Under the pieces are notes generated by a model. That model was not told the origin of the DNA. It ran no database searches and saw only the letters and a list, made by a program, of their open reading frames with translations. Below, in pieces: positions 22,964 to 64,000 of a stretch of DNA of 64,000 bases. The number at the start of each line of letters is the position of its first letter. Within the stretch, counting starts at the first letter, position 1. Where the stretch lies: IMG/VR virus record IMGVR_UViG_3300000285_000003, one strand, 5' to 3'. Source of the DNA: a virus. Both the position numbers and the translations under genes were made by a program.

Positions 22964-23929
22964 TTATGGCTGAAAACTTCCACCAGCATCAAATGATCCG
23001 CCTCCAAAATCCTATCCGGCGTCAAACGATTCTTCCCCAAAAGAATCGTTGTCGTTGTTGTAGTCGTCAGGCATTACAGGTTCGCCAGAAGAACTTCCTG
23101 TAGAATCGTTTCCAAACAAATGTAAATACCAGTATTTATTTCTGTAGTAATTCTATTTAGCTCTCAATGTATTATAGTTGGCATCTTCGTACAAATTACT
23201 AAATGGAATCATCTTCATCATGTCTCTAAACCATCTGCTAGACCCTTTATATGCGCCAGACTTTACTGTGTCAGTAGGATTATGACCAGTAAGACCCATT
23301 GCGTCAAGCATGTAAGTGAATCCTGTTCCAAAGTCATTCCATACAGACTACAATGTTGTAATAGATCCCACAAAGTCAGCAACAGTTGTTGGGTCAAGAT
23401 TTGTACCTCTAGCCTCTGCAAGACGAAGTGATACCAAGTATAGATACTGTATCCACCACGACTTATCCTCATCAGCTTTCATCTTTAAGAATATAGAACC
23501 TAACGTAGCAGCTGCGCAGATAGCAATATCGGCAGACACTGCTTTAACACCTTCAATTTCAAGCTATGTTATACCTTTTAGTTTTTCTCTCTTTTCTTCG
23601 TATTCCTATTTCTTTGATTGATCGCTAGACAAAAGTGAACGTAATCCGTAAACCCAATTGGTTACATATCTCCTAACCAAGTTAGCTATAGATGTATAAT
23701 GCCCTCTTTCTATTTCTCCGGTTTCATAGTTATAATATCCGTAGCTCTAAGCCTCTTCAGCTGTCTTAGGATTCTTTACAGGAATTCCGTTTTCATCCAA
23801 TTCCTTTACGATGTAATCGTTTGCATTCTGCATTCTTTCATATATATTACCTACAATAAAGTTACGCATCATAAACATCATTGCAGTATACAGATTCTAT
23901 CTAGCCTTGGACACTTCTGTTGCAGGCAT
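22964..23929 (-). CDS. late hypothetical protein (TAG=Gln), acidic SFDAG-repeat C-terminus
   Basis: In frame 2 there is no TAA/TGA between 22967 and 23989. It holds 7 in-frame TAG and ends at TAA 22964-22966, followed by a second stop. The first ATG after the TAA at 23990 is 23927-23929. The start is uncertain. Confidence 0.55.
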
Positions 23930-23989
23930 GACACCATTATAAAAAGCAGTTCTTTGGGCAATTTTGTTCTTTACATTCTTGGCTATCTT

Positions 23990-26900
23990 GTTATTCAAAT
24001 ATTTTGCAAACGCCTTATTTACGGTTGGTAAATAATCACCAGGCTCCCAATCATATGCGTCGTATAGTGTTGTATGTAAGTCAGAATATACAGCCTTAGC
24101 CTACTTTTTTGTATATCCAGCGTCAGTAAATGCTTTTATAAGTTGATTACGAGTATAGAATCCAGGCTTAACTCCAGCATATGATGTATCTTCAAAAAGT
24201 CTAGTGTGATGATAAAATGACATCATTACTATAGAGTTATTCATATAATCACCGAGAGTATAACCTCCCATCATAAGGTATTTAAGACAAAATCTTCTGA
24301 ACCAACCTTTATGTAAACCTTCAAATATTTCAGAGTTATTCTTACTTATTTGATTCATCTGCATTAAGGCTCCTTCTTTAGTTGTTGGCTAGGATTTTCC
24401 TAATCCCCTAAAATTATTCATAATAGTTTTAGGACTCAGCAATTTAATTATAGCCCAGCCGAAGTCTTTCATAGTAAGATATTTACCTACGAGAGAATCC
24501 TTAAATATCTGTAAGTTTGCATCTAATGCACCAACAGTCATAGAAGCCGTGTTAAGACCAAGCATATGGATAGAGCCGTATCTTTTTGCCCTAGATATCA
24601 AGGCTCTTGCAGTATCGCTCTTCTCATTATTCTTAGTAAGACCTGATACTACATTCTTACCATAGAACTATGTTTCAAGAAGTGTGTTTATAGCTTCCTC
24701 GCTTCTCTGACTACTATACTTATCCATCTTCCTGAAATGCTTGTAAACATTTCCTGATCTAGAGCTTTTATATTTATCTTCTCTATATTCTGGATTAAGC
24801 TGTTTCTATATAGCAAGAATTTCCGGCAACAATTCCATTTTACCTTCATAATTCTTAGCCATATCTACAAACTGTATAACATTGCTACAGATAGACGAAC
24901 TTATATATTCTGGATTATCTAATCGCTTGACAAATCTAATAGGAACAGTACTTTCATCTTCTCCGCTAGGGGTAACTCTTTGTTTTGCACCCTTTACTTC
25001 GACATCTGTATCACTAGGCATTATACTTACCATAGATTTACATATATATCCAAACGTATCTTTAGCTGAATTAGGTCCTTTAACTACTCTTGATAATAGC
25101 ATAGCCGTAGTGCCTTCTATCTAAGGAAGCGCATTATTATAGCCAGATTTAATGGCTGGTATTTTTTCATACATTTGCTTCATTGTACTAGTAAGCATGT
25201 CATAAAGTGCTCTGATATCTGAGTTCTAATTTATCTCCTAGTCAAAGTATTTGTCCTTATATTTATCAGTAAGCTAATATCCTGGTTCTTTTCTCTAAAA
25301 ATCATACCTATCGTCATAAATTTTATTTGGCACAGCATTACTTCTCTTAGAAAATCTTCCAGTAGGTTTTAATATAACAGAATTGTATGTATAGCCATTA
25401 TAAACAAATGTGTTACTCTTTGGTGTTATTTCATAGAAGCAATCAAGAGGCTATGGACCTTTCTTGGTAGTCTTAAAGAAGAATCTATTGTCAATAAGAT
25501 ATCTTAAATCAGCATCAGAAAACGTTGTTATATCTTGGCCAAAGAACTGATTAAGTTCTCCATTCTTAGCTCTATCAAGATATTTGTCTCTAAAGAAGTC
25601 TAGTTTACTTTTGTTTAAGCCAGGCTGCATAGCAAGCCTATAAGTAAAGTACTTTCTAAAATCAGACTTCATTCCATTTTTACCAGAATCCTCTATATCT
25701 TGTTCAATCTGCTGTGCATTAGCAAAGAATGCTTCTGAGTCATGTGGTAATCTAGAGAAGTCTTTAGATATACTTCTGTTGTCTTTTGTCAAAGTAAGAA
25801 GACCACTCTACAGATACTTTAATACAGGATCATTATACTAAGACTGACCAACATTTGCAAGCTTATATAACAAAGGATTTATAGCTACTGTAGAATTAAG
25901 TCTTATAAACTAATCTCTCTTTACAGGATCTGTAATTGCATTAAGCTCTTGTACAAAAGCAGCATTATCCTAATCGTAATCAGTCTAATCAGATACCCAT
26001 TGATTGAATGATCTTAACTCTATAGCCATTCTATATTTATCATCTTCCTTCTTTTCTCCATTAGGATAGAATGGATTAGATAACTACTCGGCCTCTTCTT
26101 TTGCAAGCAAATAGGCTTTCTGCTACTCTGGAGACAGATCTTCGTAATGTACTGTTCCGTCTTTTCTTGTAGCCTGTTTTGCATAATATCTAAGATCTTC
26201 GTCTATTCTTTGCTTTTCTCTTATAGTATCTGGCGATAAACCATGACCATGAGGATTAGCAGGTATAGGGTCATTCTTAGTTTTAGGATAATATATAGGA
26301 GCAGAACGCATCTCTTGGTAGTATTTTCTAGTGTACTACTTTATTCTTCTACCATCATCAAATGCGTCCATCTCATCAAGGTATTTATAATATTTTGGCT
26401 TCTGCCATCCAGCTGGAGTATACTTCCATTTTTCCTGGTATACACTACAACCTGTCTATTTATCGATAAGCTCTCCAGTGTCTTCATCCTGCTCATAGCC
26501 ATACTTTTCCATCAAGCGCTATTGTTCTTCACGACGGTCCTGTTCATACTGTCCTTGATTGTACTCGGTTCTAAAATTACCTGTAGCCTTACCATCTTTA
26601 TTAAATTCCATCAAAACCATCTCTGGATTTCCTGGAACAAGCTTACTCATAGCTTTCCAAGCATTACGTCTGAGCGCATCTATTTGGTGACCAATATTGT
26701 TTACGAATACCTATCTATCATAATCGATATCGTTAACCTTATTGTACAATATTCTAAGTATAGGAGAACTAGATCTTCCATACATTCCTGCCCACATCTC
26801 AAGCCAGTTGATATCTCCATACATAGCTTGTCTGAGAAGCCAGTCCTCAGCAACAATCTTAGCATTCTCTATATTACCAAGACCCATGTTATCATCTATG

Positions 26901-28447
26901 TATTGATCTACAATACCGGTTGTAAGCGCATGTAGTGCATTTCTATATAATACAGAAATATCCTGCATAGATGCATTTATTTGATCTATATGAGTCTTTA
27001 ATATAACAGGGAAGTTACCGAACACCTTAGCTGAATTTATTTGGTTTAGCACCTCTTTAAAGAAGCCTATAGAGTTCTTATCTATATCTATGAGCTATTG
27101 GGCTGTAATACCTTTAAAGTTATTTTTTCTTGAATTCTCCAAGAACTTGTATATAGAACCATCTGTTATATTTCCGTTTTGGTCCATATAACCAATTCTA
27201 TCTACAACGTAGTTTACAAATGTACAAATAGCGTCATCATCAGACTGTCTCTACATTTTCTGCATAGTCTAGAATAGCTTGTCCTATATCTTTATCTACG
27301 ATGGCGTTTTTGAAACAATATGGTCATATGTATCAAATAGGTCCTACAGTCTTTGTATAGCCTCATCTTTGCTAAGTGTATTGTCAGCCATAAGCTAGAA
27401 CTTAGCTTTGTTCTCAAGTTTTACTTTGTTAAACTCTGCTGATACCTTAACCTAATTAATGTCTATATTAAGTAAGAACGACTATGCCAGATACTCGTGT
27501 AGCATCTCTTTGTTGGAGTCGTCTATAACTAGGTCTTTAAATGCATCTCTAACCTACGTATTAAACTACTCCCACACGTCAGCGGCCTTTGTACGCTCGG
27601 CAATATCATTAGCTTTGCCAACAAGTATATCTACAAGCTTTTCCTCTGCTTCTGTTATATTTTTTATCTTATACTGACTCATAATATCAGATAGAGCCTT
27701 TTGCACCATCTGCGAATTCTGAAACATATTAAGATAATGATGACATATCTCATGAGATTCAGTGTTAAGCTTTGCAGAACTTCTTCCGAATGCTACTTTA
27801 ATCACGTTGCCTATAGCACTAAGCTTATTAGATATGTACTAACCAGAAGCTTTTGCAACATCTTTTAACGATGTGCTACGTATGTAGTCTACAAACTATA
27901 TCTACAAATCTTTAGAAGATAAAAGTATATTGCCTTCCTTATCTACTGATTTTATAAGACCAAACGATTTCTCCAATCTATCTGCCAAAGTAGTATGCAA
28001 ACGTTCGTATTCTGCCTAATTCCAGGCCTCTGTAGCCTCTCTAAGAGTCTTGCCTTCCTACTACTAAGCAAGGATAAAATTATCCTTTCTAGAGCCATAA
28101 TTTTGAGCCATAGAGCTAAATGATTTAGCGTCAAACTACAATACTCCATTATAGTTATCTAAGTCATCTATTGTAGGCTCTACTCTATCCTGCGTCCAGT
28201 CATAATGATCTTCTATAAACTTTGACGTAAATATAGTAGCCTTCTCCAATATGGCTTTTTCTCTACTACCTCCATTACGCTGTAATAAATCCTTATACAG
28301 TGCGGAGTCTTTACCATTTAAATCCTTATCTAAAGGATATCCGTTGTTCTATGATAAGGCATAATAGGCAGCCTCTCGGCTACCTAAAATACCCTCATAT
28401 TCATTTAACAACGCTTCGTTTTCTTTATTTCTTAACAAACACGTCAT
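23990..28447 (-). CDS. large late/virion protein (about 1,485 aa, TAG=Gln) with zincin HExxH motif
   Basis: A frame-2 triplet scan found no TAA/TGA between 23993 and 28444, with about 41 in-frame TAG. The ATG at 28445-28447 is preceded by an in-frame TAA at 28457. The motif SHEICHH lies at 27740-27754. Seven track ORFs (24101...27805) share this frame. Confidence 0.75.
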
Positions 28448-28452: not shown

Positions 28453-31400
28453 TTATTTATTACAGTCGTCCTATCTTCTCTTTCCGAGTTCTTTAAGATC
28501 GTCTTTTATATCCTAATCATTTTTAACTTTATAAGAATCTTGTTTCTTTCTAAGTTCTTCTCTTACTTCCATAAGAAGTTTAGGGAATTCTTTACCCCAT
28601 TTACTGTTGTCTTGTACATGAGTTAGAGTAGCATTACCAGTACTGAGAAGTATTTGAAGAGCTTGTGGGTTTTGCTCAAATGATTCTTTTAACAATTGCT
28701 TCATAACAAAAGAAGATGATCTATCCCAAGCCTAAACATTTAAGTTTTTAATCTATCTTCCTAAAGATCTTAACTAAGAACCAGTTGTAGTGTCCATAAT
28801 TTCAGCCTATATAGACTTTCCACTCGGTCTAGTATTTCCATCATTAGATCTTGTGTCAGCAAATTCACTAGCCTTGATATACTAGAACGCCTATTCTACA
28901 GACTAGAAATCTTTAACTGATCCATCATTAAAATGATGAGTAAAAGGTCTAATTGCAAAATTGCTTAAATCAGCATTCTCGCCAGTTCCAGCATATATAT
29001 TAACAGTATTAGATGTTTGAGCAGTATTAAAAGTCTTCTAGTATACAGCCTTTATAGCATTAGCAGCCTTCAAAGCTTTATCGTATCCTACATAACCTTC
29101 TCTATCAACCCACTATCCGTTTTTATTAACTTTATAATTCTATATATTCCTAGTACCAACTCCAGCAAAAGATTTTGTTAATACAGGTGTATCTTCTACC
29201 TCGAATCTACCTGTAGATTGATTATACTAATACCAGCTTTCTGTATTCAAGTCGTATACATGTACAGGTTTACCCTATTTAATACCAACTTGTACTGCCA
29301 TATTAGTACCACCCTATACTGCTTTATATGAACTAGTTATATTAGCTATAGCAAATACGCCGTCAGACTTATCTACCTGATAAAAGTTTCTTGCAAGTAA
29401 TTCTCCGCCAACATCATAAGGAAGCTCCATTCCAGTTAACCGTTTTATCTATTCTCTTGCATAGTTAGATTGTTCATGAGTGATTGAGAATGGTTTAACA
29501 TTTCTATCTCTAAGAGTTTTAGACAACCTCTAATTGTCTGCAGGTCTAAAATGATTTATATTTGTCAAACCAAACTGTCTACCTATAACATCCCAATACG
29601 TATCGCCACCATAAGCTCCACCAGAGTTCATTGTGTAATTTTGCGGATTATTATACTTATTCTACAAAGCACTCTAGCTTTTTGGTAATTTTGTAAATAT
29701 AGGAATATTTATATCTTCACCTGCCTTTGTTTTAGCCGATCTTTCTCCAGTCTTTGTAAAACCAAGATCTGCAAATCTACTTAATCCATGTATTCCGCCC
29801 TTGGTAAGCTCTCCCCATGTTGATAGATTTGCTCCATCTGGAATTACGTCAGCAACAGCCTAGAATAGAATAGCTTTTTCTTCTTGAGTAAAAGCGTTAG
29901 GATTTTTACTATCAGTAGGCTTAAAGTGTACAGAATAGTTATTGTCTTCTAAGTCTTTAACAACCTCAAAATAACCTTTACTTTCCTTTCCTTTAAGATA
30001 TATTCTTCTAGTCTTATTCTATTTACTACTATCAGATTTCCACGGCTTAGCAACATCTTTTACAACTACGTTGTCTGAATACGTATTCTAGAAAGAGTCG
30101 GAATAATCGTTATGAGTGCTCTTGTGTTCTGTGCTAACATATTTTGCTAAATCCGCAGTTTTATCATACAGGTATTTAAATAACACAGGAGTACGTGCTT
30201 CTGTAATCTATGAGATTTTACCATTAGACAAACCTGTAGATGGGAGATAGATTTTTCTATATTTACCTGTATCCCACTCATCCTTAATAGCCTAAAACTC
30301 TGCATCTATAATCTTCTTGAAATCATCTATATCAGAATCATTCCATCTACCAGAATCTCTTGTTCTACCTGTTGAAGGATCGTACCAATGCTGTGTAGAT
30401 ACAGGCATAGCATTATCCATACCTCTAATTATAGCCGCTGTTGTATTAGGGAACATCTTACCTAATCCATAGGTCCTAGCGTACTTACTATCGTTGCTTA
30501 TAGGATTACTACCAGAAGTTCTATTTGTATTGTCTCCGAATACATATAACACATCAGGATTATCATTAACTTCCTATCTTGTCCAATTTCCTGGATGATA
30601 TTCAATCTTTCTCTCAGCCTATTTAGGTAAAGAAGGATTCTCTATATCTCCTGTATAAGGGTTAGATACAGGTACACTAGATATAACGATAGCAGTCTTT
30701 CTAGGTCTTGTTAAAGCGGTATAGATAAGCTCTGATTTCTCTTGGTTAGAAGTAGCTGTTGTACCCATTATATCCTTTTCGTCTACAACCACAATATCGT
30801 ATGTAGAGCCCTAAGATTTATGAGCAGTAATAGCATAACCAAAATCAACATCAGCATATCGTCCTTTGTATTCCCAGAAATCACTCCAAGCCTATTTCTT
30901 TAATGCTCTATTTGTCTATCTCTTAGCATAAGAAGCTAATTCCTATAATTTCTGATTATATAACCCAATATCATTTCTAGATACAACCTATATAACACAA
31001 TCTTTTTGTTCATTACCAGTTCTCGTATATGCTGTACCATTTGTCTCAAGATATAATGTATGAACTCCAAATTCATCAACATCTGTATCCTAAATACTCT
31101 TTATCTGTATTTCTGAAGAGTTTTCCATTGTAGCATTAACATCCGGTAAATCGTATGGAGAATTTAAGATAAGCATATCTCCCTTTGAATAATCTGAGTC
31201 CTTACCGAACAAAGCCTCGTGAATCTTCTGGTTTAATTCAGTCTTCTCGTTTACGTGATATGTTACAATCTTCACATGATTAGTAAGACCTTTTTCAACA
31301 GCGTTCTTAACAGCTTTGATTACTGAATTTAAAACTTCTCCTTCGCTGTTGGAGAATAATAAAGATCCCTTATCAGTAATCTGGTTATTTCTAACAATGT

Positions 31401-34400
31401 GTTGTGTAGGATTAAGCTCCGGGTTTTCTTTCTAAGAGTTCTCCCAGAAATAATCAGCATATGGTAATATTGGATTAGCTTCACCCTATCTAACTCTAGT
31501 AATAAGCTTAGACTTATGTTTACTATTAAATATGTCAGACTTTTTATTTAAAAGATCCTTATGAGTTCTATAGAATTCACTTTGTTCGTCTCTGATTGGC
31601 TATATCTGACCTATATCTCCCAAGAATAACATCTAGAATGGTCTAGAAAGACTAGAGTTTATATCAATGATCTTTTTGAGAACATCTTCTGTTATCATTG
31701 ATGCCTCATCTATAACAAGCAATGCTGGAGGATTGTCTAACAATGGAACTTTTAGACCTACCTGGAATTTAGTTGTCTATGTATCATTATCATTAATACC
31801 CTTCATTCCGAGTAAACCTGCTATACTAAAGAATTTCTTTCCTCTTGTATCGTCTCCAAAACTACTCTTTATTACACCCTTAGCTTTATGAGATACCGCT
31901 GCAACATATATCTGCTCATCTTCGAATTCTTTAAGAATTTCTTTAGCTATAGTAGTCTTACCTGTACCAGCTTTACCTTCGATAACATAATACTATGTAG
32001 GATCTGTGTTAGTCTTTAAGAACGATACGGCGTTCACTATAGCGCTTTGCTATTCTTTGTTGTAAGTAATTCCTCCAGACTTACCGGTTGATCTAACAGT
32101 GGTGACATCAGTATTCCTTACAGGAGATTCTGCTTTGGTTTCTTTCGGTTCTAGTTTCTTTGCGTTAATATAGAATTTCTATTTAACTTCTTCTACAAGT
32201 TTTGCATATTGAGCATCATTCTCTTGATAACCAATATAATTCATACCAAATCCAAAGTCGCTATTACCAAACTCAAATATATCATTGCCTTTAAAATGTA
32301 ATCCCTTCTTCTTACATAGTACATAAATCGGAACTTCTGTTAGGCTTACGTTTCCTGTATCTTTATCTTTGATTCCATTAAATTTACTAACTCCAACCAA
32401 TCTGTAAAGAGATCTATTTACATTATTGTTGTACTTATCAGACAACTCATCCTTTACAGTAATATATCTAGGGTATTGCCCATTATCAAGTCTATTGATA
32501 GTAGTGACATATTCTGAATTTTTGTCCAATGCATAGCCACATAAAGCAAATGGCTTCATTAACTATGGGTCATATATTCCAGAGTCAGTAAAATTCTTTC
32601 GGCCTTTTCGTTCATAATCGTACTGTGGTACAAAATCGGTATCATTCCAATTATTTCTAAGTATATCATCTATAATAGCCTCTCTTATGCTTGGCTCAAG
32701 ATTTGTATTAAACTTATTTAACCAGAACTCTACATGTCCAACAAATCCGCTATTAATCTTCCATGAGTTAGGAACATATTTAAAGAATCTGTTAAAACCA
32801 GATTTCTCACCAGATGTTAACCATGCGTAAACTACAAGATCTCTAGCAAACTCCTTTAACTCCTAATCGTCCGGATAATTAAGCAATTCTTCCCAAGCAT
32901 CAGTTAAGTCATCCTGGTTAAATGATGATTCTGATATACTGTGGAATGTACTAACAAACTTAGGAGCAGGATAAGTCTATCCATTAGCGCCTGTCGTTGA
33001 TTCATCTTTAACCTAATCTGATTCTACGAGCGATGTAAGCAGTTTGTTATTTCTTAAGTAGAACAATTTATCATCTGGATTGTTGATCCTACGCTTTATG
33101 CCAGCAAGCCTGTCAGCTATTGTATTGTTACCAAAGAATAATCTATTAACGTCTATCTTATTATTATCTTCTACTGCATAAGCTCTAATAAAGAGTGATT
33201 TAATACACTGTGAAACATTTCTATCTAACTTGTTGGCTATATCTTCTGTCTATGAATAATTGTTCATAAACTGACCAAGCTAACCAACTAATGAAGTATA
33301 AGATGTAGTAGCCTCAAATACCTATCCAGCAAGAATACTCTTCATTGCTTTCATAAATGAATTAGTCTTCTTATCAATCCAAGAATGTGTCATCATTTTC
33401 ATAACGCCTTCTGGTTCGAAAGATGTGTTACCTTGCTGAATATCCTTTAAGAACTAATCGTACTTCTCTTTATATAATAGCTATTTAGCAAGCGTATTTC
33501 CCTGCTTCTTTGTATCGATCTTAGTAAGCTGTACGAGTTTTGAGATATCATTTACAAATGGCTGTAATATATTCCATGCCTTATATACCTGCACCTAAGC
33601 TCTACAAAAATCTGGATCTTTTAACATATCCTCCTTATTAGTATATTTAAGAGCGTAATTCTTAAGATATTTTTCGCTATCAAACATACTATTTATTATT
33701 CTGATAGGAGAATTATTTTTTGCAGCATTCAATATGTGCTATTCCTTATCGAGCTATTTTTGTATTCCAATTCTAGCTTCATCGGATGTAGCTTCCTACA
33801 AATTGCTAGTAAGCATTCGTACCCTATCTTCGATCTAATCAATTTCATCCAAAGAATCGAGTCTTACGCTATTTATAAATCCTAATTCCCTTGTAACATC
33901 TTGACTATATAATTCATTTCCTTTACCAAGATAGCCAGCTATGTATTGCCTAAGAGCTTTCTCAGTAGCATCCTTCTAAGCTCTGTATTTACTCTTTGTT
34001 AAATCTCTACCATAGTGTCCACTAGCTGCTTCTGCAGCGAATGCCATATCCTTAATAATAGGCTACGTGATAAACCAAACGGAATTATCAGCCTAACCTG
34101 TTCTAACAAGGAAATTAAGCATATTATATGTAAAGCTATTTACGTTTATCTTTGATACATATGGATCCTTTACGATATCACAGTGAGCATTAATAAATGC
34201 TGACAGCCACGACATAACAGCATTACCATTCTTGTCATCACGTAAGTCTATACGTTTGAATGGTGTCTGCTTAGTAAATTCTGTCTCCTTTAATTTTACT
34301 CCGTAAGCCATAGTAAGAGCCTAATTTGTCACATTAAGAGCAAATGGTGCGATACCAAGCTTACCTGTAATATAATCTCTACGTCTATCTGTCTACTCGT

Positions 34401-50612: not shown

Positions 50613-53600
50613 GACTATCTATATTTTGTTATTATATATTGTATTGCCATAGCTGGATTTGGTTTAATATCTTCTATACTGCAAATCATGACCTTACCTC
50701 TAGCTCTATTGCCAAATAATCCATCAGCCCTAGGTATGACAAATCTATGATTATTTTCTCTAAGTGTTATCTGTTCTTCTAGACTAGACTCTATTTTCTA
50801 AGATTCTGTCTACCATGTATATTTATGATTTTTTGAGAAGTAGTCATCCTAGTCGTATATAACATCCTGTAACTATAGATTTTCGTATGTAACAATTTCT
50901 TGATTGTCAAACACCTTTGTAACCAATGGCTATTGAGCAACAACATATTTAACGTAACTTGAAAGTAACTACTGATTTGTTGATTTAGGCGATTCGTCTA
51001 GATAATCGTACTAATACACACATACAGTATCATTCTTCTTTACAAGGTATTCTCCATTAAAGAACTATATAGCTCCATCAAACGGAATAGTTAGTGTTGA
51101 CGTGAATTTTCCAATCATTTCATTGTATACGATTTGCATATCATCGCTTAAAATATTGAATACAACTTCATTGTATTTATTGTTGTAGAATACCTTAAAG
51201 TTATCGTTCTTTTTATACTTGTTCAGTATATTCTATACTTTACCTTGTTTTGAAAGCTATACTACACTCTATCCGTCGAATAAGCAGATTACATTATTAT
51301 GACTATCAAACCAATATAAACCACCTGTAGTACATACTGAACAGAATTGCTGCTTGTGTATTCCATAAGTATTGCTGTAGTAGTCATATCTATCAAGTAC
51401 TCCTCCAGTTCCTAATACTATATTTTGTCCAGAATTATCTGTAGCAACACTACGGTCATTAACACTGAGTACACCAAATGATTGCTCCTAGAAAAATGTA
51501 AGAACATTCTTAAATGTACATATATCAGTTATAGGGCCATATTCCTAATCTACGTCTATAAAGTTAGAGCTTCTAAATTTACACCAGCTATCTATAATTT
51601 CATCATTCTGTTTTAAATCAGAATAATATACTCTTGTATCTATAGTTTTATTATAATCTTGTGGATTAAGATCATCGTACGCAGCAAACGGCATACTTGT
51701 ATTCTATATACTGTAGACAGAATTATAAACGTATTCAGGCTCTTTCTGTACGTAAGCTTCTGTTATTTCACACGGTTCAGACTGTATAAAAGATGCGTAA
51801 TTGTCTCTTGCGTTAGAACTAAGTGTCAATCCATGTTGAAATTTGCACCATATATTTGATTCTGTTGGTATAGAGTATGTTATCATATGAGTATTAGGGA
51901 ATTGTAATTCATCCTTTCCGTTCTTTGTATAAGCTCCATACACTTTATGCATAGATGTATATTCGAATGTCTCTACGTGACAATCTCCATCAAATACTGT
52001 ATTCCATTTATTTTCAGACTCAAAGTAATTACCATCTCCGTAATATATATTCGTAAGTCTATTTGTAAACGAATACCCACCATAAGGAGTTGTTTGCTAT
52101 CTAAGATTGGTTAGGTATGTTCCAAGTAGAGTTGGCCTAATTACTTTTGTGATCATACCAAAATCACTAGATTCTGTCTAATATGGCTCTTCTTCTAGAC
52201 TATCATAATAATTACCATTCTTAGGATAATAATAAGAAAATGCACCAGCTGTACCAGTTTCTTTATACTAACAACTTAACAATAAGCACTTTCCACCAGT
52301 TCCAAAACATACATTTTTATTGAACTTTGCATCAGTTCCATCGCCTTTAAATCCTCCACTATAATTACCAAACGATTCAAATATATTACCATTAGTATCA
52401 TTGCAAATTCCTCCGGTAATCATATTTGTAAATAGCGCTCCACCGGCAGAAATAGCATAATTAGTGTACGTTTTTGATGAGGCCTATTCGTTATTATCTT
52501 TGTTAAAGTTTCTTTTGAACGCCTAATCCCATTTTATTTGATCAACTAACTAAAAGTCCTATATATAATTTATCTAAGATTTTCCAAACCAATCATCATT
52601 AGATGCAAAATTACCATCAAAAAAATCCTATACACCAGCACTCTGTTCGTACAATTTTATATAAGCAAAGGCCTTCTGTATTATGAATTTGCCAGATTTT
52701 TCCTTTCTTTTATTAGCAGACTAGTCATCATTATTATATAGTCTATCAAAATTTAAAATGCAATCTTTTATTAATGCATAAGAATATGGCCTATCATATC
52801 CAAGACCACCAATAGAAGCGTAATCGGCCTCGAAACCAATATATGTTATACCTTTATTTTTATACGACTAAGGATTAATCCTGTAAAAATAACTTGTGTT
52901 ATATGGTGCATCTAAATAGCATATTGGACTATTTTTTGAAATCTTATTTATAACATCTATATCATTAACATGGAAAGTCCCCCTTGCATCACCATCATCG
53001 TTTGGTCCAGTAAATAATTCTACAGCACAGTTTGAAATACATGGTATTACAAACTTAAAATTTCTCCTATTGTTATGACCAATCAACATTCCATACTCTG
53101 TATTTGTATATCCATTCTTAGGAGAATCATACTAGTCGTCATTAAATTTATGGTCACCTCTTGCTCCAAATAAAAAAGACTATTTTTGCAAATAATATTT
53201 TTTGTCTTTTATAAATTGTTTAAATGATTCTGGTTGATAACAAACTTCCTTTGAAACAAATTGCAATAATTTGTCATTATCTATGTTTGTCATACATTGT
53301 GATGCTAAATCATCTCCTTTCCAAACAAGCTAATTATGTACATTGTATCCTTCTATAAACTTATTTGTTGTTAAAAACCCTGTTGGGCAAAACATATGAT
53401 ACTTAGTTACATAATATTCATTATTTTTCCCCTCATACTGTCTACTATAAGCATTAGATACAGGAGAACTAAGTACACCTTGTGATATTGTAGCGATATC
53501 AGATTCATGTCTAGCACATCTAACTATTTGATAACCAGTACAGCCTTCTGGTAAACTTTTTACCATAAACTGTATTCCAAGATTTCTGATAACTAGTTCG

Positions 53601-55297
53601 TAACGCTTGCCATTAACGATAGTATTTGATGACATTAACTAGAAACCTTCTTCAGTTACATTTGGGGTTCTTATATCAGCAATCCATTTAACTGGAGAAG
53701 CTTGGCAATATTTATCATACAAAACAATTCCGTAACGATAAATCTCATTTCGTCTAAGTGACTTTATCAACCATGTGTTTTTATTTATTCCAGGATCAAA
53801 TTCTGCTTTCTCTATTATGGATGGTTTAAAATTTTTATCAATGTAAAAAACATTATTTTGCTATATGTTTTCTTTCTGAGAATAATTGTATAGCGTTCCT
53901 ATCTTTCTTGTATTGTTTTCTTTTATGCAAGAATCTTCTACCTAAGAAGAAATAACAAATCTCCATTCTATATTTTTACCAGATCCTCCAACCCATCTAT
54001 ATTCTGAATCGAATACAAAATTAACATAATACAATGAAGCTTCTTTATTTATGTTGTTATAAGTACCATCATAACAATCATGGTCAAATGGAGGAACTGC
54101 AACAGAGTCGTCTTCTATGTCTTTGCCGTGCGCATCTATTATAAATGAGTTATTACCATTAATGTCTGTTACAGTACTAGTATTTAGGTAATTGAACCTA
54201 AATGCTCTAGCGTCCCATTTATCGAAATCTTTAATAGTAGTCTGTATTGTCTTTGTGTTTGCGGCAAACAGAAAACCGTCTTTAGATGCCAATGAATTAG
54301 GTATTATTCTAACACCTTGTAATGAATTTAACTCTTCAACACTGATATGTTCTATTGGATCATTACCAACATCATTTATAACTATATCTGTAGAATCTTG
54401 TTCATTAAAGTCTACTTTAGCGTCACATATTACAGATACTATTGGCATCTATCCGTTTTGCGTATACTGTACTCTAAATACTTTAATATAATCAAGATGC
54501 CAATAATTACTAGGAATTTGTATAGATATCTTTACTCCACAATTTGATATAGCACCCTGTTTACCGCCGCACTTTACATATTTGCTGTCGAAATCATAAT
54601 TACCAATTGGTATTTGCTAACATTGTATAGATGCTCCTGTATGTATTCCGTATCTATTGTACAGCTAATAACAATAACTTACAACGCCAAATTCTATTTT
54701 TCCTGGCACATACTCTTCAAATATCGGTGGTTTACAAACTGCTTCTGGATAAGATAAGCATTTGTTAAGATCATCATATAAAAAATCATTGCTTATATTA
54801 AAAACCATTATAGGATGTATTGAATCTGCTAAGTATAGCTTGATGTTGTTTTCGCTCTCATAATTAAGCTGAATATCAAATACATCTGGATACTTCTACC
54901 CTTTATCTAAGGGCAATAATGGCGCATTTACAATAAGACTGATTTTCTATATATCATTGAAGTCCTAGTCATGCACTGTTCCGCCTATTGCGTTTTTAAA
55001 ACTATAGATCTTAAGTCTATTTTCATTTTCATCAATGCAAACAACTACTCCGTAATCTCTTATTGAACCAGTGGCAACAACTTTGTTACCATCGCCAGCA
55101 AATGATCCAGCTAGCTTTACACCCTAGACTGGCATTAATGATCCATGTCTATTATCTCTGCCTTCTCCACCTCTATATGATGATATTTTTATATTTCTAG
55201 CATCAATATACTAGTTTGTGGCAACAACAGAGAGATCATCATCACTATTTAATCCTCCTGCGAAACTATTAATTTGTGGTTCAGTATTAGTATCCAT
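50603..55297 (-). CDS. large tail/baseplate-type structural protein (1,564 aa, TAG=Gln), function unassigned
   Basis: A frame-2 triplet scan found no TAA/TGA between 50606 and 55315, with about 40 in-frame TAG. ATG at 55295-55297. Joins track ORFs 51704, 52868, 53330 and 53942. The structural role is inferred from size and position only. Confidence 0.7.
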
Positions 55298-56105
55298 AGC
55301 AATAATCGTTAAAGTTTAACTATTTCTTTCCGGTGTTATTAAAGAAGTTCTCGTCATCATCCCACTCTGGTATAAGCTTAGTCCACTCATTCTTAATAGT
55401 AAGCATTTCGCTTTCGTTTGGCATCATTGCTTCAGCGTAAGCCTGGTTTCTATAGAAATTCCACTACTACTATATGTAGAAGTATGTGTTCTAATTATAT
55501 CTAGCTTTTCCACCAAGTGATCCTCTAAGGAACTTTGGAAAGCTTAACTTCATCATTACATACCAGTATATAGCTTCCTAATATGAAGCTAAGTCTGGGA
55601 TAAGTGGGTAACCCCTTTCGTCTGTAGCTATTGCCTTGTATGACAATTTAACGAAACCTTTATCTTTATTAAAGACTATCCAACCTGGCTTAATCCAGTA
55701 TGTAGGAACATCTACTTTATGGTCTCTAATAGCATCCATTAGTGCAGTGCTACCATTGATTCCTAAAAGCTATGATCTATGTGTAGGTAGCATTACTCCA
55801 GCTGGTTGTTCTGGGTGATAGTGATGTATATGCTTTGTGCTAGCTTTAGACTTAAATGAGCTTTCATCTTTTAGTGCCTATACCCAATTTGTTCCATTGT
55901 TTGAATAGGCTACAGTTGTCAATGACTCTAAGTCTTCTGGTATTGGAACTTGATGTTCGTGTATTTCAAATATTGGAACGCAATCTTCACCAGACTCTTT
56001 CTATACATACTATACAGGAGCACCAATCTTCTCAACAGCTTCAAAGATCCATTCTCGTATATCTGTAATACGTATGTTCTTTTCTTGCATGTTTGAGTCA
56101 GCCAT
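55287..56105 (-). CDS. late hypothetical protein (272 aa, TAG=Gln)
   Basis: Frame 0, from ATG 56103-56105 to TAA 55287-55289, with about 10 in-frame TAG. No minus-strand ORF of 60 aa or more is listed here in the standard-code track. Confidence 0.6.
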
Positions 56106-56124
56106 AATTTTAGCTATAACTGAC

Positions 56125-56595
56125 TCACATTTTGTATATTTGTATATCATCTATATTTATATAATCTTGTTTATTAAATATAAGTTGAGCAAGGTGCCTT
56201 TTGTTTTCTCTAACCATACATAGCTAGTATTTATATCTATCAGAAAATACCCTGGGTATTTTTGACCAATATAATCTATATTTGTATCCATTAGAGTGCT
56301 CGTTTAAATGATAAACCCTTTTACCTACTTCTTTTGTTGATTTATAATCTGTAGACAATGACTAATCAGAATAGCTCTTAGGTTTATATTTTACTATGCA
56401 TATAGTACCTAGCCCATAAGGCATTTTAAATGGCTGTGAGCGCTCTAAAATCTCTTCCTTGACAACTTTATTAAATTCGTCTATAATGCGCTTATATCGC
56501 GCGTAATTAAGCTCTACATCGTTCTTTTTAATGTAGTCTCTATATATATCAGCTATTGTATAGCTTTTCTTATTCTTCCTTATCTTGAGGACCAT
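56125..56595 (-). CDS. late hypothetical protein (156 aa, TAG=Gln); weak HU/IHF-like resemblance
   Basis: Track ORF 56362-56595 continues through TAG 56362 to TGA 56125-56127. The segment FKMPYGLGTICIVKYKP vaguely recalls an HU-fold beta-arm. Confidence 0.55.
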
Positions 56596-57262
56596 TTGGT
56601 TTAACGCTTGCTAATGTTGAGTTGTTACTATCGTCACTAGGCCTCTTAAGCATAAACGCTAATTCGTTAATCATGATAGCTTTTTTAATATCTGGTATCA
56701 TCCATCCAGGTATCATTATATCATCTTCACTACCAGCTGTTTGTGTTGGGTCAAATATTCCTGTAACGTATATGTATTTAAAGTTTTCTGAACCATTACC
56801 ATCAACGTATATATACTAATCATCAAACCAACACATAGGTTCATTGTATGTATACCTTCTAAAATTATGATAATGCTTTCTAGATTTACTCATAATCTGT
56901 ATAACGCAACCACTAGCATCAGTAACGTTAACTATGTCGTCGCTACTATTCTCCATTGTATACAGCTTATTTTTTGTTCTCTTTAGTTTACCACAACGAC
57001 AGCAGCAACAGTCCTTTGACCCAGAATCTGGGTCGTCTATAAGTTCAAGTGGTCCAATAGTTGATAACTAGCTATCATCCGGATCCTCGTCATCACCGGT
57101 CTCAGCATCTTTATCATTTTCTTTCTTAGACAAATAAGCTTTATACTACATTATCCAAGATAAGATCTAATCTCTAGACATGTCCTCACTCTCACTTATG
57201 TTGTTATTTCGTACAATAAGAAGTATGTCATCTATCAATGTACGAGCTGAGAATGTTTTCAT
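56570..57262 (-). CDS. late hypothetical protein (230 aa, TAG=Gln) with CCCCRC cluster
   Basis: Frame 2, from ATG 57260-57262 to TAA 56570-56572, with 4 in-frame TAG. An acidic linker is followed by KDCCCCRCGK. Confidence 0.6.
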
Positions 57263-57909
57263 ATTGCTTCTATTATTCTTATACTGTCTTCTTTAAGTAT
57301 GTCATTCGTATTACGTATCTTGTATTTATACACATCTTTCTTTTTCCAGTCAAATGTTATCAATCTCTTAAAGAAGTTCTTTTTGTTTTTATATTCTCTA
57401 TGCTTATAAACGTAGAGGTACTAAGTGTTCTATACATCTAACTTGATATTAACACTATCTTTACCGATTGTATAGTATACTTTAGTTAGGTTGTTATATT
57501 GTAAACTATCCTTATAAACAGAGTCTTTAAGTATAGTTATAATATCACCCCCTACCCCCTTACTCTTATTAACGTTTATAATCTACTTCTAAGTTGCCGC
57601 TACCTAAATTTCTTTGCTTTTTAGCTTTTCTGTCTTGCGTACAGAATCCAACTACTACACAAGATTATCGTTATAATCTTTAAGCTTTTTCATATCTAGC
57701 CTTAAAACACCAGAAGCCTACTAGGCACCGCTTAAGGCATCCTAATAGGCTTCGATGTTATTATTAGCCATTTTAAGCTCCTGTGAGAGCCTATTAGCTT
57801 TGTTGTGGTAGAATATACCAGACGCTACACAAAAGGCTATTAGAAGCCCACAAATGGCATTAAGCAGCGTTTTGTAGTTGTTCTTTATTTTGCTTAATAT
57901 CTACTACAT
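57259..57909 (-). CDS. membrane-anchored coiled-coil protein (216 aa, TAG=Gln), spanin-like candidate
   Basis: Frame 1, with ATG 57907-57909 inside the end of the holin-like gene. N-terminal TM LLNAICGLLIAFCVASGIFY, then a charged heptad-like region. TGA 57259-57261 shares an ATGA with the next gene. About 12 in-frame TAG. Confidence 0.5.
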
Positions 57910-58165
57910 CACAATTGCTTTCATTATTAGTTAAACACTCTTTTAAATATGTTTTTATCTCACCAAACTTACCTTGTATATAAATAGATACTCCATATAT
58001 ACTAGCTGAATAAACTAATGTTTGGGCTACAAACCCTAGTACACCTGTGGAGATTTCACCCTATTGTAAATACTGCACCCAGGTGAGAACCTAACCGCTT
58101 AAAAACGCGAGGCATGCGGTTGAATACTAAATCTTCTCGCGCCATGTTCCTGTTACATTGTTCAT
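57860..58165 (-). CDS. holin-like small two-TM protein (101 aa, TAG=Gln)
   Basis: ATGA overlap with the upstream cell-wall enzyme gene. Hydrophobic helices STACLAFLSG-VLTWV and GVLGFVAQTLVYSASIYGVSIYI. 3 in-frame TAG. Ends at TAA 57860-57862. Confidence 0.5.
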
Positions 58166-58587
58166 TTTATCTCAATAGTTACATTTCCGTTAGAACAAGC
58201 TTCCTTTATTATTGGATAAAACTTGTTTATAGTAGCTCTTGAGTTAAGGACTTTTCCAACCTATTTGTTTTTGCCGAGAATCAAACAGCCTTCAGTGTCA
58301 GCGCTTGTGTTTCCTGCGTGAATACGTATACCTTCAAATGATGGAACGTTCATCAGCTGTGGTGTATACTTCTTAAACCTAGGTGAATATGTCCACTTGA
58401 TCTCATAAGTTCCGTAAGGTATTGCCGTTTTGGAATGTACCTTTTTCTCTCCATTGTCAAATTTGCCATTCTTATTGAGGTCTCTTACAGTATCTTCTAT
58501 AGTGTCGCAAAAATATACATCGTCTATATAAAGTTTTCCTATAGTGTAAGTTGGACGGAGAGCTATTCTTTTTAATGTTAATTTCAT
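58162..58587 (-). CDS. YkuD-fold-like cell-wall enzyme (DUF5675-like), candidate endolysin (141 aa, TAG=Gln)
   Basis: Track ORF 58261-58587 continues through TAG 58261-58263 for 32 codons (VGKVLNSRATINKFYPIIKEACSNGNVTIEIK) to TGA 58162-58164. IRIHAGN...EGCLILG resembles a His/Gly-Cys active site. Confidence 0.55.
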
Positions 58588-61500
58588 ATTATACTTACTC
58601 CAGTTTCTTTATAGTACTTTAAACTTTCTCCAGAATTCTAAATATTAGCAGTAGTTATAGTTATACCCTAATTTATATCTGCAAACATCTTATTAACAAT
58701 ACTACTATTTGCTGCAGGCCATTTTATAAAGCTAGATGTATGGTTACCAACATTTTCTCCCCACGTTGATACAATTTTAGCATTATTAGAAGCCATTTTA
58801 CAATTAGATATATAATATGTACCAGCAAATATTGGGCCGTTTAATACACATAATAAGTTTGTATACAACATCTGGTCTAGCGTAATTGATGAGAATCTAG
58901 TCATATCAAATCCTTCAACAAGGTTTCCGTTATTATAGGAACAAGCCAAATTTAATCTAGCTTCTCCAGAATAACTTCCATAATCTATACCATAAATTAT
59001 ACAACTATTCTTAAACGCATTGCTCAATGTGGATGTTGTAGAAGGTATTGACTCATTTAATATTACAAACGAATAATTGTGTATTGTATGTGTGCCAGAT
59101 ATGCTATCCTATAATATAACTGGCTGCGCTCCAAACGCATCATTCAAAACAGAATATGTAGTATAGTTTTTAGGATACTAAACATATACATTTGTTGTTT
59201 CGTTTCCAGATGTTGTAGAACCTACTAGACGAGGTATAATTACCTGGTTGTTAAATACGCCGGTTACAATACCTGACCTATTTGCTTTAAAAATATTTTC
59301 AGGTATAATTCCAGCCATTGCATTAGACGTATTATCTTTAGCAAATGCATAACTATAGTTTGTTATACCATTATCTCCACTATCTGAAGTATGAGAAGTT
59401 GCTGCACAATAAAAGAAATCTGGTGGAATAATCAAGTTGTTTACGCCTCCATCAGGAACCTATCCATTATTAAACGTTGTGCCATTTCCAAGATTATATG
59501 AAGCCTAATATCCACCTGTCAAATGCTATGTATCAGTAAGCTCTGTGCAGTGATTAATGGTATGTTTTGTATATGTATATTCTTCAGTTTCCGGATCCTA
59601 TGTGCGAGTATAATATTCCATATACGCAGTCTGATCGCTTGTGTCATTATTCTTTGCACAGTTGTCTGGAATTTCTGTAGTCATATCAAACTACTATGCA
59701 CCACTCTATGGACTAACATTGTAAAATACATGAGAGAAGCTCCAGATTTTATAAGTGTTATCTCTTCCGTATCTATAATTATGCAGAGTTGCAGGCTTAT
59801 ACTCATTGCCAATCTTTATGAATACCTAAGTATTAATATTGTCATATCTCTTTCTAAAGAAATCAAATGGTATAGGTTTTGCTAAAGATATATTTGCAAA
59901 GCAATATCTAACATCTTGTATTTTAGGTAATTTAGAGAAGAAGTTGTCATCCAATCTTAATGCTCCATTATCACACTTAGCACCATCGAACGTATGTCGC
60001 ATATATTTTGCGTTTGAATTTATTGTAGGTAAACTTCCAAACGTTAAATCTCCATCAGTTTCGGTTATATTTGTATTATAGAATAAGTTACTAAGATTCT
60101 CTTTGTTATGCTTAATGTACAGATTACATATATCTCTATAGTGTGCCAATGAAACATGGGCTTTAAAGTTATAGCATCCGTAATCATGTCTATATTGACT
60201 TGTTAAGAATCCACCGTAACTTCTTGGAACAAACTTCTCCCAATTAATAAACTCCCATAAATCAATATCATCGGTACTTCTTCTATCTTGCGATAAACAT
60301 GTTTCAATGTTGTCTATATTTGGTAGGTCATAAAGTAAGCCATCAAGGTTTACACTATAACAACTAAGGAAGCTTGCGCGCAAAGTTGTTAATGATTTCC
60401 AATTAGAGTTGAATAATTCATTCAAATCAACCTTGTATGAGTTAGATATATTAAAGTCCTATATTCTCCAAAGTTTCTTAGGAGATACACCGTTAGGATT
60501 CCATATATCTTTAGCAGATATAATTTCTGATGTTGATATATCGTTACCGGTAGTTGGATCCATTGGTATCTAAAATTCATGACCTCCATTACCGTCATCA
60601 CCACCCCAATCTGTCATCTTTGATACACAGTGTTCAAAACAGTCTATAGCCATTCTTGAAGTATGTGTACAAAATAACTAACTATACGAACATCCTGATG
60701 GACTACCGAAATTATACAACTCTTTAAAGTGTACATTTATACCTGTAAAAAGATACATCTAACTAGCATTAGTAACCTTGTTTAAAACTGATGGATCTAT
60801 AGGGCTTTTAAATACACCTTCTATTATGCACTTCTTATAATCATCTTGTGTAAACCTAACACTAGAATAAGCAAACATTAAACTAGTGTTAGTAATGTTG
60901 TTATCTTTTGGAATAGCATGTGCAAAAAAGTTTGCTACAAATTCAAGATCAACACCACTTCTTTCAAATGCACTATTTAAAGACGTTGTATCAGGTTTTA
61001 CTGATAACTCTGTATAATCTCCACTCTAATCTAAACCATGATAATTAAAACAGTTATAGAACGTATATGGCCCAATATATAGATGTGTAGCATCAACGGT
61101 CTAAAGACCTGTAACATTCTAGAAGCAGTGATTTATAGCTGAAATATTTGGAGGAAGGATAACATGCTTTATATTTGTGCTATTCTAGAAACATACATTC
61201 TAAAGATGTGTTGAGTTATGCAAGTCTACAGTATTATTAACGGTTGCACCAGTATTATCTTTGATACAAAGCTAACCATGTATGCAATTTGTTACAGATA
61301 TACTCTTAGGGTAAATCTATACATTAGAATGGTTGTCATACTCTGTAATTGTAACGGTTCTAAGCTTAGGACAATTGTTTATATTTATTGTTTCAAAACC
61401 TTGTAGTGTTATAGTCTCAACAGAATTGTCACCAGAAAGAGTAAAACTACTGCCACTCTCAATGCAGCTTAAATTAAAGTTTGTGATATTCGTTTTATTA

Positions 61501-64000
61501 TTGAACGACAAGTTCTTGTATTGCCCCTATATCTATGACCACTGAAGCGTCTAAATCTAACTATTGTCTACAGAGAAACTGGTGATATTAGTACAGTTTG
61601 TTATAACAATACTTGCTCCTGGGTTTTTAATATTACTAACATTAACAGTTGCTATATTTAAACCATTCGCAGTTAAACCCATTTTTGATCCGCTAAGATT
61701 AATAGAGCTTAGGTTCGGATAATTGTCAGCTCCATTAAGTGTTAATGTTGCAGTATAACCAGGTGATGTTAAATTGATCTCCTTAACGCTAGGTGTATCA
61801 AAAGAGAAACTTCCAAATGTATTCGAAGAACCGTTTATTGATTCAAGTTTATCAGACCCAATGTACAAACCAGTCTAAGCATTTCCTTCTATCCAGTTTA
61901 TATTTTCAAGATAAGACCATAGCTAAGAACCTCCAACCTTAACACCTTGCACACCGGTTGTTTTAATGTCGACCTATTGATAATTATCTCCACCAATTAT
62001 GTAGTTTGCAATAACCGAGTTAGCCTTAGTAATCTGTAAAGGAGAAAATTTAGGACATTTAATCTTAAAGCTAGCATTTGAACCAAGCTGAATACCGGCA
62101 GAAGAACTTCCAGAAGAGAATATGTCTCTAAGGATAATTACATCTTGATTCATAGGTACAGAATAGTTTGCGGCGTTATAAGTAAGATCGTATACGATGT
62201 TTTCAACATTTGGATCGCTACTTAGATTTATGTCCTTCCACTATCCGTCATCATCTCTATATTGTATAGGAACACCTATTCTTGAGTTAATATTAAAGTA
62301 TGCATCAAGGATGTGCAATCTACCATTAAACCAATCTCTTACATAGTTGATTCTGGTTCCGTTAAACTTCTGGTAATCAATAGGATTCCATTGTGTACCC
62401 TAACCATCGAGTGCAAGATATTTAGATCTATAGTTATATGTTACAAGTAGGCTGTTTATAGAACCGAGATTATTAGCGTAGAAATTATCTACAAAATAAT
62501 CAGCATTTTTTAGAATGCCTTCGTGAGTCTTGTTGTTTATAACATTACTTCTCCATTTTGCATACAATTCTTGCGGATAGTTAACCGTATACTATTCGTC
62601 GTCCTTAAATATTAATCTGGCATATTTAGCGACTGCAAATAAATATGATGAAGGAACATCGAATCCGTTTGACCCAAGTGTAGATGGTGAAAAGTCTCTG
62701 TATATATTTACATTATCTGGATAATCAACACCGTCTTGAGTTTTCTTTAATTGTCCATCCCAATAGTCTGAGAAAGCAAAATAAGAAATTTTACCACCGC
62801 TATTGTTAATACCTAAACATGTATCCATATCATAGAACGCTGTTACCCAAGTTGTACCAGCAGAATTCTTGCCAGACCACGTCTTAATATTAAGATTCTT
62901 CATTACACTATCAACAAGACCAAGAACCATACATATTGTATAATACTCTGATATTGACTAGAAGTTTAACTCTGATGGTCTATTGTTGTCCATATCTGGT
63001 ATACAAAGATCTCTTAAATTATTCTATGTTCCAGGACTAATAGTGCTCTTCAACACGTATTTCCAACTTGAACCATCAGATCTTCTTTGATACTATTTAG
63101 TATAATCTGGAACCATATTTAATGATTTTCCAGTTTTGTTTCCAGATTTATCAATCTCTTCTGCAGAATATCCATCTTCATAAGAACCTCTTCCTTTTTT
63201 TAGATAGTCAAATAAATAACCACCTCCAAGCGTTACTGATTTTACGAGCTTTTGTATAGATTCCTACAGTTCTGCTTCAGAAAAGTTTGAGCCATGAACA
63301 AGGTCTCCAAACATGTATGTGTTATCGTTCTCTTTGTTCTGCTAAAATAATATAGTAGAATCATACTGTGAGAAGTCAAAGTAGTTAGAACCGCCCTAAA
63401 TTTCAGCAACACCAAGACCTTCTCTCAACGTATTATCATCGTTATTTATTTTATAAAACACAAAGTCTTTTCCGCTACCAGTTAATGTAGTCTTGTCACC
63501 AAATACTCTAAGATCTTTATAGCCGAGATTAAAATACGACTCACGACCAAGGTTAAAGTTATATACTCCGAAGTAATAATAAACGTCATCTTTGAGCCCT
63601 GTATCAGGATCTTCTGTAACAATATGCATAAACAAAAGTATAGGAAATCCCTCAAGGCAGTTCTTTATGTACGGCTTAAATACGCTATCTTCACTAATAC
63701 TGTCGCTAAATTTTTCACAAACTGTATTTACAAACTTTCCGCAAGTTGTATTATTTGAGTGAGAGCTATCAACGACATCAGCTTTTAATGTAAACTACGT
63801 TTCTGGTAAAAATGTCTCAAGGTTATTTTGATTGAAATTAGGAGAATACAAGTAAACGTCAGCAGTTTCAGATTGGTCTGTATTTTCTATTTCCAATGTA
63901 AAGTTTTTTACTCTATACAATTTTGTAGAAGAACCTTGTAACGATGCCCTAAACTGTGCATTAGTAAACGAATCTGGTACCTTAACTTCTGTTAACGCAG
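58584..64000 (-). CDS. very large tail-fibre/receptor-binding-type protein, 5'-truncated by the window edge (at least 1,805 codons, TAG=Gln)
   Basis: A frame-0 triplet scan found no TAA/TGA between 58587 and 64000, with about 40 in-frame TAG. TGA 58584-58586 shares an ATGA with the next gene. Leucine-rich-repeat-like segments occur at 61317-61868 (INLTSPGYTATLTLNGADNYPNLSSINLSG..., NITNFNLSCIESG...). Confidence 0.7.

Follow-up and report, generated by a model that had tools for sequence, protein, structure and literature searches.

Predicted reading of TAG as glutamine in the minus-strand genes of a probable Burzaovirus-like gut phage

We analyzed codon use in a stretch of 64,000 nucleotides of viral DNA (IMG/VR record IMGVR_UViG_3300000285_000003), referred to here as the window. 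Between 22964 and 64000 the minus strand carries a block of large genes in which TAG is a sense codon, most consistent with glutamine, whereas the plus-strand genes between 123 and 22947 contain no internal TAG. The window is very probably part of a roughly 100-kb genome of the Crassvirales (Suoliviridae, Oafivirinae, Burzaovirus-like), a human-gut crAss-like phage that uses genetic code 15 (amber reassignment) in its late genes. The recoding finding is correct but already known. All of its elements have been published for crAss-like phages of this group, and RefSeq annotates a 98%-identical genome in this way; the window is therefore a further instance and not a new idea. For the coordinates of the individual genes and elements see Table 1.

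Reading frames and TAG codons of the late block

The open reading frame (ORF) structure was re-derived with our own script, making each stop codon a sense codon in turn. With only TAA and TGA as stops, the minus strand between 22964 and 64000 resolves into 13 contiguous or overlapping ORFs with stop-to-stop sizes of 1831, 6002, 606, 536, 280, 1571, 290, 182, 241, 224, 104, 149 and >1805 codons. The longest minus-strand ORF measures 266 residues under translation table 11 and up to 6,001 residues with TAG as sense; the summed length of all ORFs of at least 100 residues increases from 4,404 to 16,974 residues. Reading TGA or TAA as sense, which served as controls, gave no comparable gain in ORF length. 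The comparison of stop schemes proposed in the initial annotation of this DNA therefore yields a large gain on the minus strand for TAG only.

Within the 13 late ORFs (13,821 codons) TAG occurs in frame 370 times, or about 2.7 times per 100 codons, and TAA and TGA do not occur at all. In the two other frames of the block TAA is found 429 and 929 times and TGA 152 and 621 times. The initial annotation had described TAG as the sole interruption of these frames and had placed four ATGA start/stop overlaps at 48245, 57259, 58162 and 58584, all of which we reproduced. Its estimate of about 360 in-frame TAG codons was right in kind and slightly low in number, and the 14 gene ends that it listed for the block reduce to 13. 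The GC skew changes sign at ~22.9 kb, where the coding strand switches (boundary 22947/22964). Chance can explain neither the restriction of the interruptions to TAG in the late block nor the absence of TAG from the early genes.

Under the standard code the late coding frames do look shattered, falling into 383 pieces with a median length of 23 codons, as they would if the block consisted of decayed pseudogenes or were an assembly or sequencing artefact. The interruptions, however, involve one stop codon out of three, 370 times and with zero frameshifts. They are also conserved in the two closest relatives, crAssphage cr7_1 and cr124_1, which keep 137 of 148 and 129 of 145 aligned TAG codons, respectively, and the domain matches are full length. 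The exclusive use of TAG together with its conservation refutes decay or artefact, to which we assign practically no probability. A standard-code annotation would break up 41 kb of genuine genes into hundreds of pieces, and recognition of code 15 is thus essential for correct gene calls.

Four independent lines of evidence support the decoding of TAG as glutamine in the late block, as far as this can be read from sequence. For a comparison with homologues, the 1564-residue tail stabilization protein was translated with TAG masked as X and aligned to six Suoliviridae homologues of ~29% identity, three of which have no TAG in their gene. Glutamine was the commonest residue opposite the masked positions (33 of 180 aligned cells, 6.8-fold over background), and no other residue exceeded 1.6-fold. 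This tabulation had been suggested in the initial annotation and came out in favor of glutamine. The codon comparison with the two close relatives points to the same residue. CAG or CAA replaces TAG at 6 of the 11 changed positions in cr7_1 and at 10 of 16 in cr124_1 (16 of 27 pooled), and at 14 sites where only a relative has TAG, the window has CAG nine times. TGG, the other transition neighbor of TAG, was never seen as an exchange.

Several TAG codons coincide with conserved glutamines. In phmmer alignments the X of HKSxGS in the superfamily 1 (SF1) helicase of ORF B faces glutamine in three out of three solved SF1B helicase structures, and the X of RVRxGE and that of NKExQSA each face glutamine in one aligned helicase structure. 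The assignment of TAG 30811–30813 to the glutamine of the AHKS-Q-GS motif, made in the initial annotation, is exact in position, and TAG 28882–28884, assigned there to the F-Q of the NADAR signature, directly follows the phenylalanine. TAG 58261–58263 lies inside the DUF5675 domain; read-through gives a match to positions 1–114 of the 114 of the Pfam profile, which is covered in whole only in this way. Likewise, the CrAss_Ring_1 profile is matched from 1 to 271 of 272 across ten TAG codons and is full only with read-through. The read-through translation also gives Pfam matches to NADAR, to AAA_30, PIF1 and UvrD_C_2, and to DUF7831.

Decoding of TAG as a different residue (pyrrolysine, tyrosine, lysine, glutamate or tryptophan), or ambiguously, is extremely improbable in our judgment. 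ARAGORN labels the tRNA with anticodon CUA found in the relatives (see below) as 'tRNA-Pyl', which is its default label for this anticodon. A minority of exchanges leads to TAT/TAC, GAG, TCG or AAT. Glutamine would, moreover, make the late proteins unusually rich in this residue: including TAG it amounts to 5.4% of the late codons versus 3.0% in the early genes, and to 5.4% of the stabilization protein here versus 2.6–3.0% in its standard-code homologues. Set against this are the strong enrichment of glutamine alone opposite TAG, CAG and CAA as the main exchange partners, the lack of any exchange between TAG and TGG, and the helicase glutamines encoded by TAG. Mass spectrometry in related phages found glutamine as well (PMC9523058).

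The early block and its two TAG stops

At the rate of the late genes, ~165 in-frame TAG codons would be expected in the plus-strand ORFs. We observed none in 6,157 codons of 28 ORFs, in line with the initial annotation, while the two other frames of the same genes contain 139 and 89. The 28 ORFs end in TAA (20), TGA (6) and TAG (2). The two genes ending in TAG are, as had been noted, 123–614 and 3250–3666, with the stop codons at 612–614 and 3664–3666. Past the first of them a TGA follows two codons on, so that the products of gene 123–614 under the standard code and code 15 differ by two residues only; this arrangement of TAG and TGA is kept in hundreds of relatives.

For gene 3250–3666, all homologues, including ones as distant as 36% identity, stop at the same position (...YDLPFYQ[E/G/S]). 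RefSeq annotates a 24-codon extension past TAG 3664. Homologues with a body of just ~52% identity match this extension at 100%, and it is therefore conserved for another reason and not as a protein tail. TAG 3664–3666 does behave as the end of the gene and marks a real C-terminus. The claim that TAG is a stop codon in the early block can accordingly be kept in part: the genes lack internal TAG and 3664 is a true end, but the claim rests on two of 28 stops, one of which is backed by TGA. A better term for the early block is code-neutral or, as published, 'dual-coded'.

We know of no described bacterium that reads TAG as glutamine. A genome that is always in code 15, for example in such a host, with early TAG absent by codon usage or composition, would agree with the RefSeq record of cr7_1, which is read through TAG as a whole, including the counterparts of genes 123–614 and 3250–3666. 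Codon usage or composition would nevertheless have to account for a codon that is frequent off-frame and missing in frame, and TAG 3664 is the very point at which protein homology ends. Recoded prophages have also been reported inside standard-code bacterial genomes (10.1101/2021.08.26.457843). We regard code 15 throughout the genome as very improbable and prefer a TAG-free early block ahead of a recoded late block.

The TAG at 3664–3666 is part of a covarying hairpin that precedes the gene of an ECF-type sigma factor. The 5' arm of the hairpin contains the stop codon, and its 3' end lies 6 nucleotides before the sigma-factor ATG (3696). Orthologues of gene 3250–3666 in the phage database came from near-identical genomes only; diverged ones were obtained from a large protein database. 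The TAG is invariant in nine of nine DNA sequences, with proteins as low as 36% identical. Across the alignment 98.8% of the cells are paired and four of the ten pairs show double compensatory changes, a covariation reached by none of 500 shuffles. With the 3' partner slid by 1–3 columns as a control, only 42–56% of the cells are paired.

Read-through of this TAG in the window would give a 24-codon out-of-frame overlap that extends 43 nucleotides across the sigma start. In the relatives L011, L013 and L014 read-through would stay in frame through the whole sigma ORF and give a fusion protein, and in L015 and L016 the frame past TAG is open up to the contig end. A tentative and rather unlikely idea is that this TAG is a built-in sensor of the code switch that alters the output of the sigma factor. 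Once a tRNA with anticodon CUA accumulates, ribosomes would pass TAG 3664 and melt the hairpin, leading to the out-of-frame run over the sigma start here and to the sigma fusion in L011, L013 and L014. With either outcome the sigma-factor output would shift when the code shifts.

Relatives, suppressor tRNA and published precedent

The window is 98.4% identical at the nucleotide level to NC_055895.1 and 98.3% to cr124_1 between 1 and 22417, and 97.9% and 95.6%, respectively, between 47415 and 64000. NC_055895.1 is crAssphage cr7_1 or Burzaovirus coli (Crassvirales, Suoliviridae, Oafivirinae), a genome of 103.8 kb from human faeces, and cr124_1 is Burzaovirus faecalis (NC_055899.1; Suoliviridae, Oafivirinae). 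RefSeq carries the minus-strand genes of cr7_1 as long coding sequences with TAG read through. A 103.5-kb contig in ENA is a further relative of 98.5% identity. With regard to membership in Burzaovirus coli, the 64 kb seen show ~98% identity across roughly 39 kb, and the ~25 kb from 22418 to 47414 have no nucleotide match. Signature genes of the Crassvirales and of the Suoliviridae (delta crAss-like phages) are present, namely the tail stabilization protein, the ring protein and the giant virion protein with the DFDxD motif of an RNA polymerase (RNAP). Homologues of the stabilization protein are spread across crAss-like phages. Both cr7_1 and cr124_1 share with the window the gene order, the TAG-recoded minus block, both early TAG stops, a permuted tmRNA and a 2.1-kb ORF-free region. 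They differ from it in the segment 22418–47414, with the last plus-strand gene and two giant ORFs, which has no megablast match to either.

In cr7_1 a 72-nucleotide tRNA with anticodon CUA, tRNA(CUA), is located at 9123–9194 on the minus strand and is annotated as tRNA-Gln. It lies between the first few minus-strand genes and the dUTPase, ~2 kb away from the divergent region between the two gene blocks; projected onto the window, its site is ~9 kb to the left of the first position. The same tRNA(CUA) is found in cr124_1 at the syntenic site next to the dUTPase. Because the tRNA is near the 5' end of the minus block in these two closest relatives, it would be made before most of the recoded genes. 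Most minus-strand coding sequences of cr7_1 that we checked carry TAG. It is absent from the major head protein (92679–94214; no TAG in 511 codons, with recoded neighbors) and from three small genes heading the block, upstream of tRNA(CUA). An annotated plus-strand gene of cr7_1 to the left of the window (12041–12511, gp71) contains six TAG codons; either it breaks the strand rule or the gene call is spurious.

Based on these data we propose the following scheme. Standard translation by the host would read the TAG-free replication and regulatory genes of the plus strand at once after infection. The TAG-rich genes of the minus strand would be completed only once a suppressor tRNA(CUA) of the phage, presumably aminoacylated with glutamine, competes with release factor 1. 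The recoded set would comprise the giant virion RNAP-type polyprotein, the tail, ring and stabilization proteins, the spanin-like gene, DUF5675 and others. We infer that the purpose is timing or, as in the model of Borges et al., blocking premature expression of late and lysis genes. Such a phage would be a textbook case of a virus that changes how its host cell decodes genes while the infection is under way.

Several points weigh against glutamine decoding timed by a phage tRNA. Neither ARAGORN, run with and without introns, nor Rfam found a tRNA(CUA) inside the window, and the presence of this tRNA in this exact genome would be an extrapolation from the relatives. The labels 'early' and 'late' are reasonable but derive from gene content and not from a measurement of timing. 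The TAG codons add to CAA and CAG instead of simply replacing them, since CAA and CAG together make up 2.8% of the late codons and TAG another 2.7%. Finally, glutamine faces only 18% of the aligned TAG sites in the homologues, which means that many TAG codons are at non-conserved positions where the decoded residue is uncheckable.

The window's lack of a suppressor tRNA also speaks for a host amber suppressor, or for an inactivation of release factor 1 by the phage with reading of TAG by near-cognate tRNAs, both of which need no phage tRNA. Detectable suppressor tRNAs and recoding are not always found together (Yutin 2021, PMC7886860), and only 40% of TAG-recoded genomes have suppressor tRNAs (Borges et al., 10.1101/2021.08.26.457843). 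Both relatives of ~96–98% identity, however, have tRNA(CUA) at a conserved syntenic site, which is outside the span of the window. No Pfam domain of a release factor or an aminoacyl-tRNA synthetase was found among the 20 plus-strand and four late proteins scanned (including the C-terminal half of ORF B). Decoding without a phage tRNA thus appears improbable to us, and a phage-encoded tRNA(CUA) is the preferred reading.

The recoding is well documented in related phages. Yutin 2021 (PMC7886860) described late-gene-restricted reassignment of TAG to glutamine in delta-group crAss-like phages, and a 2021 preprint by Borges et al. (10.1101/2021.08.26.457843) reported preferential recoding of the spanin together with a temporal model. 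In those phages, as in the window, only structural and lysis genes use code 15 and replication genes are unrecoded. Their suppressor tRNA is phage-encoded and the spanin is the most recoded gene, likewise true of the spanin-like gene here, and we see no difference of principle. The Mgcod preprint (10.1101/2022.06.29.495998) reported that the code changes where the coding strand does, that the early block is dual-coded and that the recoded strand has a Sup-CTA tRNA at its 5' end; it credits the strand-linked code switch to Ivanova 2014 and Yutin 2021. 'Phage 2' of Ivanova 2014 and the Mgcod genomes show the same coincidence of code and strand switch and the same dual-coded early block as the window, with no difference found; the position of their Sup-CTA tRNA is that seen in cr7_1. 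Peptides with glutamine at TAG were detected in two crAss-like phages of 94 kb and 191 kb (Peters 2022, PMC9523058). TAG stands for glutamine in late structural proteins of these phages, as predicted here for those of the window. The clean partition by strand and time that the initial annotation had singled out is therefore real (no plus-strand codon versus 2.7% of minus-strand codons) but not distinguishing, as it is the published norm.

Features of the window and structured RNA elements

Table 1. Genes and elements of the window. Codon and TAG counts are given where available; strand is relative to the sequence as given.
Feature	Coordinates	Strand	Codons	TAG	Remarks
Early / replication block	123–22947	+	6,157	0 internal	28 ORFs
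TAG stop of early gene 123–614	612–614	+			TGA two codons on, overlapping the ATG of the next gene
Covarying hairpin	3663–3689	+			GTAGGG-T-GAGA / GAGA loop / TCTC-CCCTAC; 10 bp, GNRA-type loop
ECF-type sigma factor	3696–4253	+
DnaB-like helicase	15226–16167	+
AAA_24 ATPase	16672–17412	+
Toprim primase	18830–19801	+
AAA ATPase	20484–21401	+
DNA polymerase	within early block	+			per RefSeq
Giant late ORF A	22964–28447	-	1827	48	stop TAA; no function assigned; only 21–35% local identity to cr7_1 gp33
Giant late ORF B	28453–46449	-	5998	166
NADAR, ORF B	28588–28977	-			Pfam
DUF7831, ORF B	30163–30591	-			Pfam
SF1 helicase, ORF B	30682–32064	-			after DFDID in the protein; AAA_30/PIF1/UvrD_C_2 Pfam matches
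DFDID motif of crAss virion-RNAP type, ORF B	34654–34668	-
Late ORF	46455–48248	-	597	15	start overlaps upstream stop as ATGA
Late ORF	48245–49840	-	531	16
Glycine-rich late ORF	49824–50612	-	262	8	RefSeq: glycine-zipper; matches PHROG families of tail lysins and tape measures weakly
crAss tail stabilization / virion structural protein	50603–55297	-	1564	40
CrAss_Ring_1 tail ring protein 1	55287–56150	-	287	10	Pfam E = 1.5e-108
Late ORF	56125–56595	-	156	2	phrog_12177
Virion structural protein	56570–57262	-	230	4	phrog_9863
Spanin-like lysis gene	57259–57924	-	221	12	12 of 14 glutamine codons are TAG
Small, apparently hydrophobic late protein	57860–58165	-	101	3
DUF5675 protein	58162–58587	-	141	1	TAG at 58261–58263
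Large late ORF, continues past window end	58584–64000	-	>1804	40	counterpart of cr7_1 gp22

Among the late genes the spanin-like gene has the highest TAG density of the window (5.4 per 100 codons). The ORF at 46455–48248 is 75% identical over its residues 12–365 (counted stop-to-stop) to residues 1–358 of cr7_1 gp31. The small protein at 57860–58165 has no family match; it may be located in the membrane, judging by a reading of its residues and not by a predictor.

A megablast search of 50,697 phage records gave no match to the segment from 22418 to 47414, in contrast to its flanks, which are ~98% identical to cr7_1. Within the segment lie the last plus-strand gene and the giant minus-strand ORFs of 1827 and 5998 codons. 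Their proteins show no more than 21–35% local identity to cr7_1 gp33 and gp32, and gp32 has 5443 codons compared with the 5998 of ORF B. A tblastn comparison of ORF B with the giant proteins of other Suoliviridae resulted in identities of 30–46%. The RNAP core is 40–46% identical to that of other Oafivirinae. Its best match in a database of 5.8 billion proteins is 52% identical, where fragmented standard-code calls may hide closer relatives. No near-identical copy of this giant RNAP variant was found by megablast.

A region of 2.1 kb in the early block (6736–8899, plus strand) lacks a credible ORF whichever stop scheme is applied and matches no Rfam family. Gene-free gaps of 2.0–2.2 kb occur at the syntenic place in four other Oafivirinae genera (cr131_1, cr130_1, cr273_1 and Bohxovirus), and the nucleotide sequences of relatives align over ~2 kb. 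The plus strand of the region folds far better than the minus strand. For the block 7220–7500 RNAalifold predicted 62 pairs, 25 of them with compensatory double changes, from an alignment of only five sequences. The region looks like a candidate for a large structured non-coding RNA of Oafivirinae crAss-like phages. A minus-strand ORF at 7113–7742 with three TAG codons, whose counterpart in cr7_1 is annotated as gp52 in RefSeq, overlaps this conserved structured-RNA region and has a translation that is not protein-like by eye. It is probably a false gene call and hence no exception to the strand partition.

An intergenic cluster of tRNA-like elements was observed at 18300–18820 on the plus strand, with three GGTTCGAATCC T-loops. 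One of the elements (18657–18761) is a tRNA by Rfam (40.9 bits) with an insert of ~31–33 nucleotides in the anticodon loop, which ARAGORN (option -i) reads as tRNA-Ile(GAU); the remaining ones gave no clean parse. A 'tRNA-Cys(ACA)' at 2641–2707 is doubtful, and a 'tRNA-Stop(UUA)' parse of low score was not trusted. At the left edge of the window (1–51, plus strand) there is a truncated tRNA of which only the 3' part is included; in cr7_1 it is tRNA-Met.

A permuted tmRNA of the two-piece type is located at 2374–2609 on the plus strand (Rfam RF04321, full model, 63 bits versus a gathering score of 47). ARAGORN gives DNVNNIVDYTNVA as its tag peptide, with UAA at the end. The tmRNA stands in the early block of a stop-codon-suppressing phage, and RefSeq annotates it in cr7_1 too.

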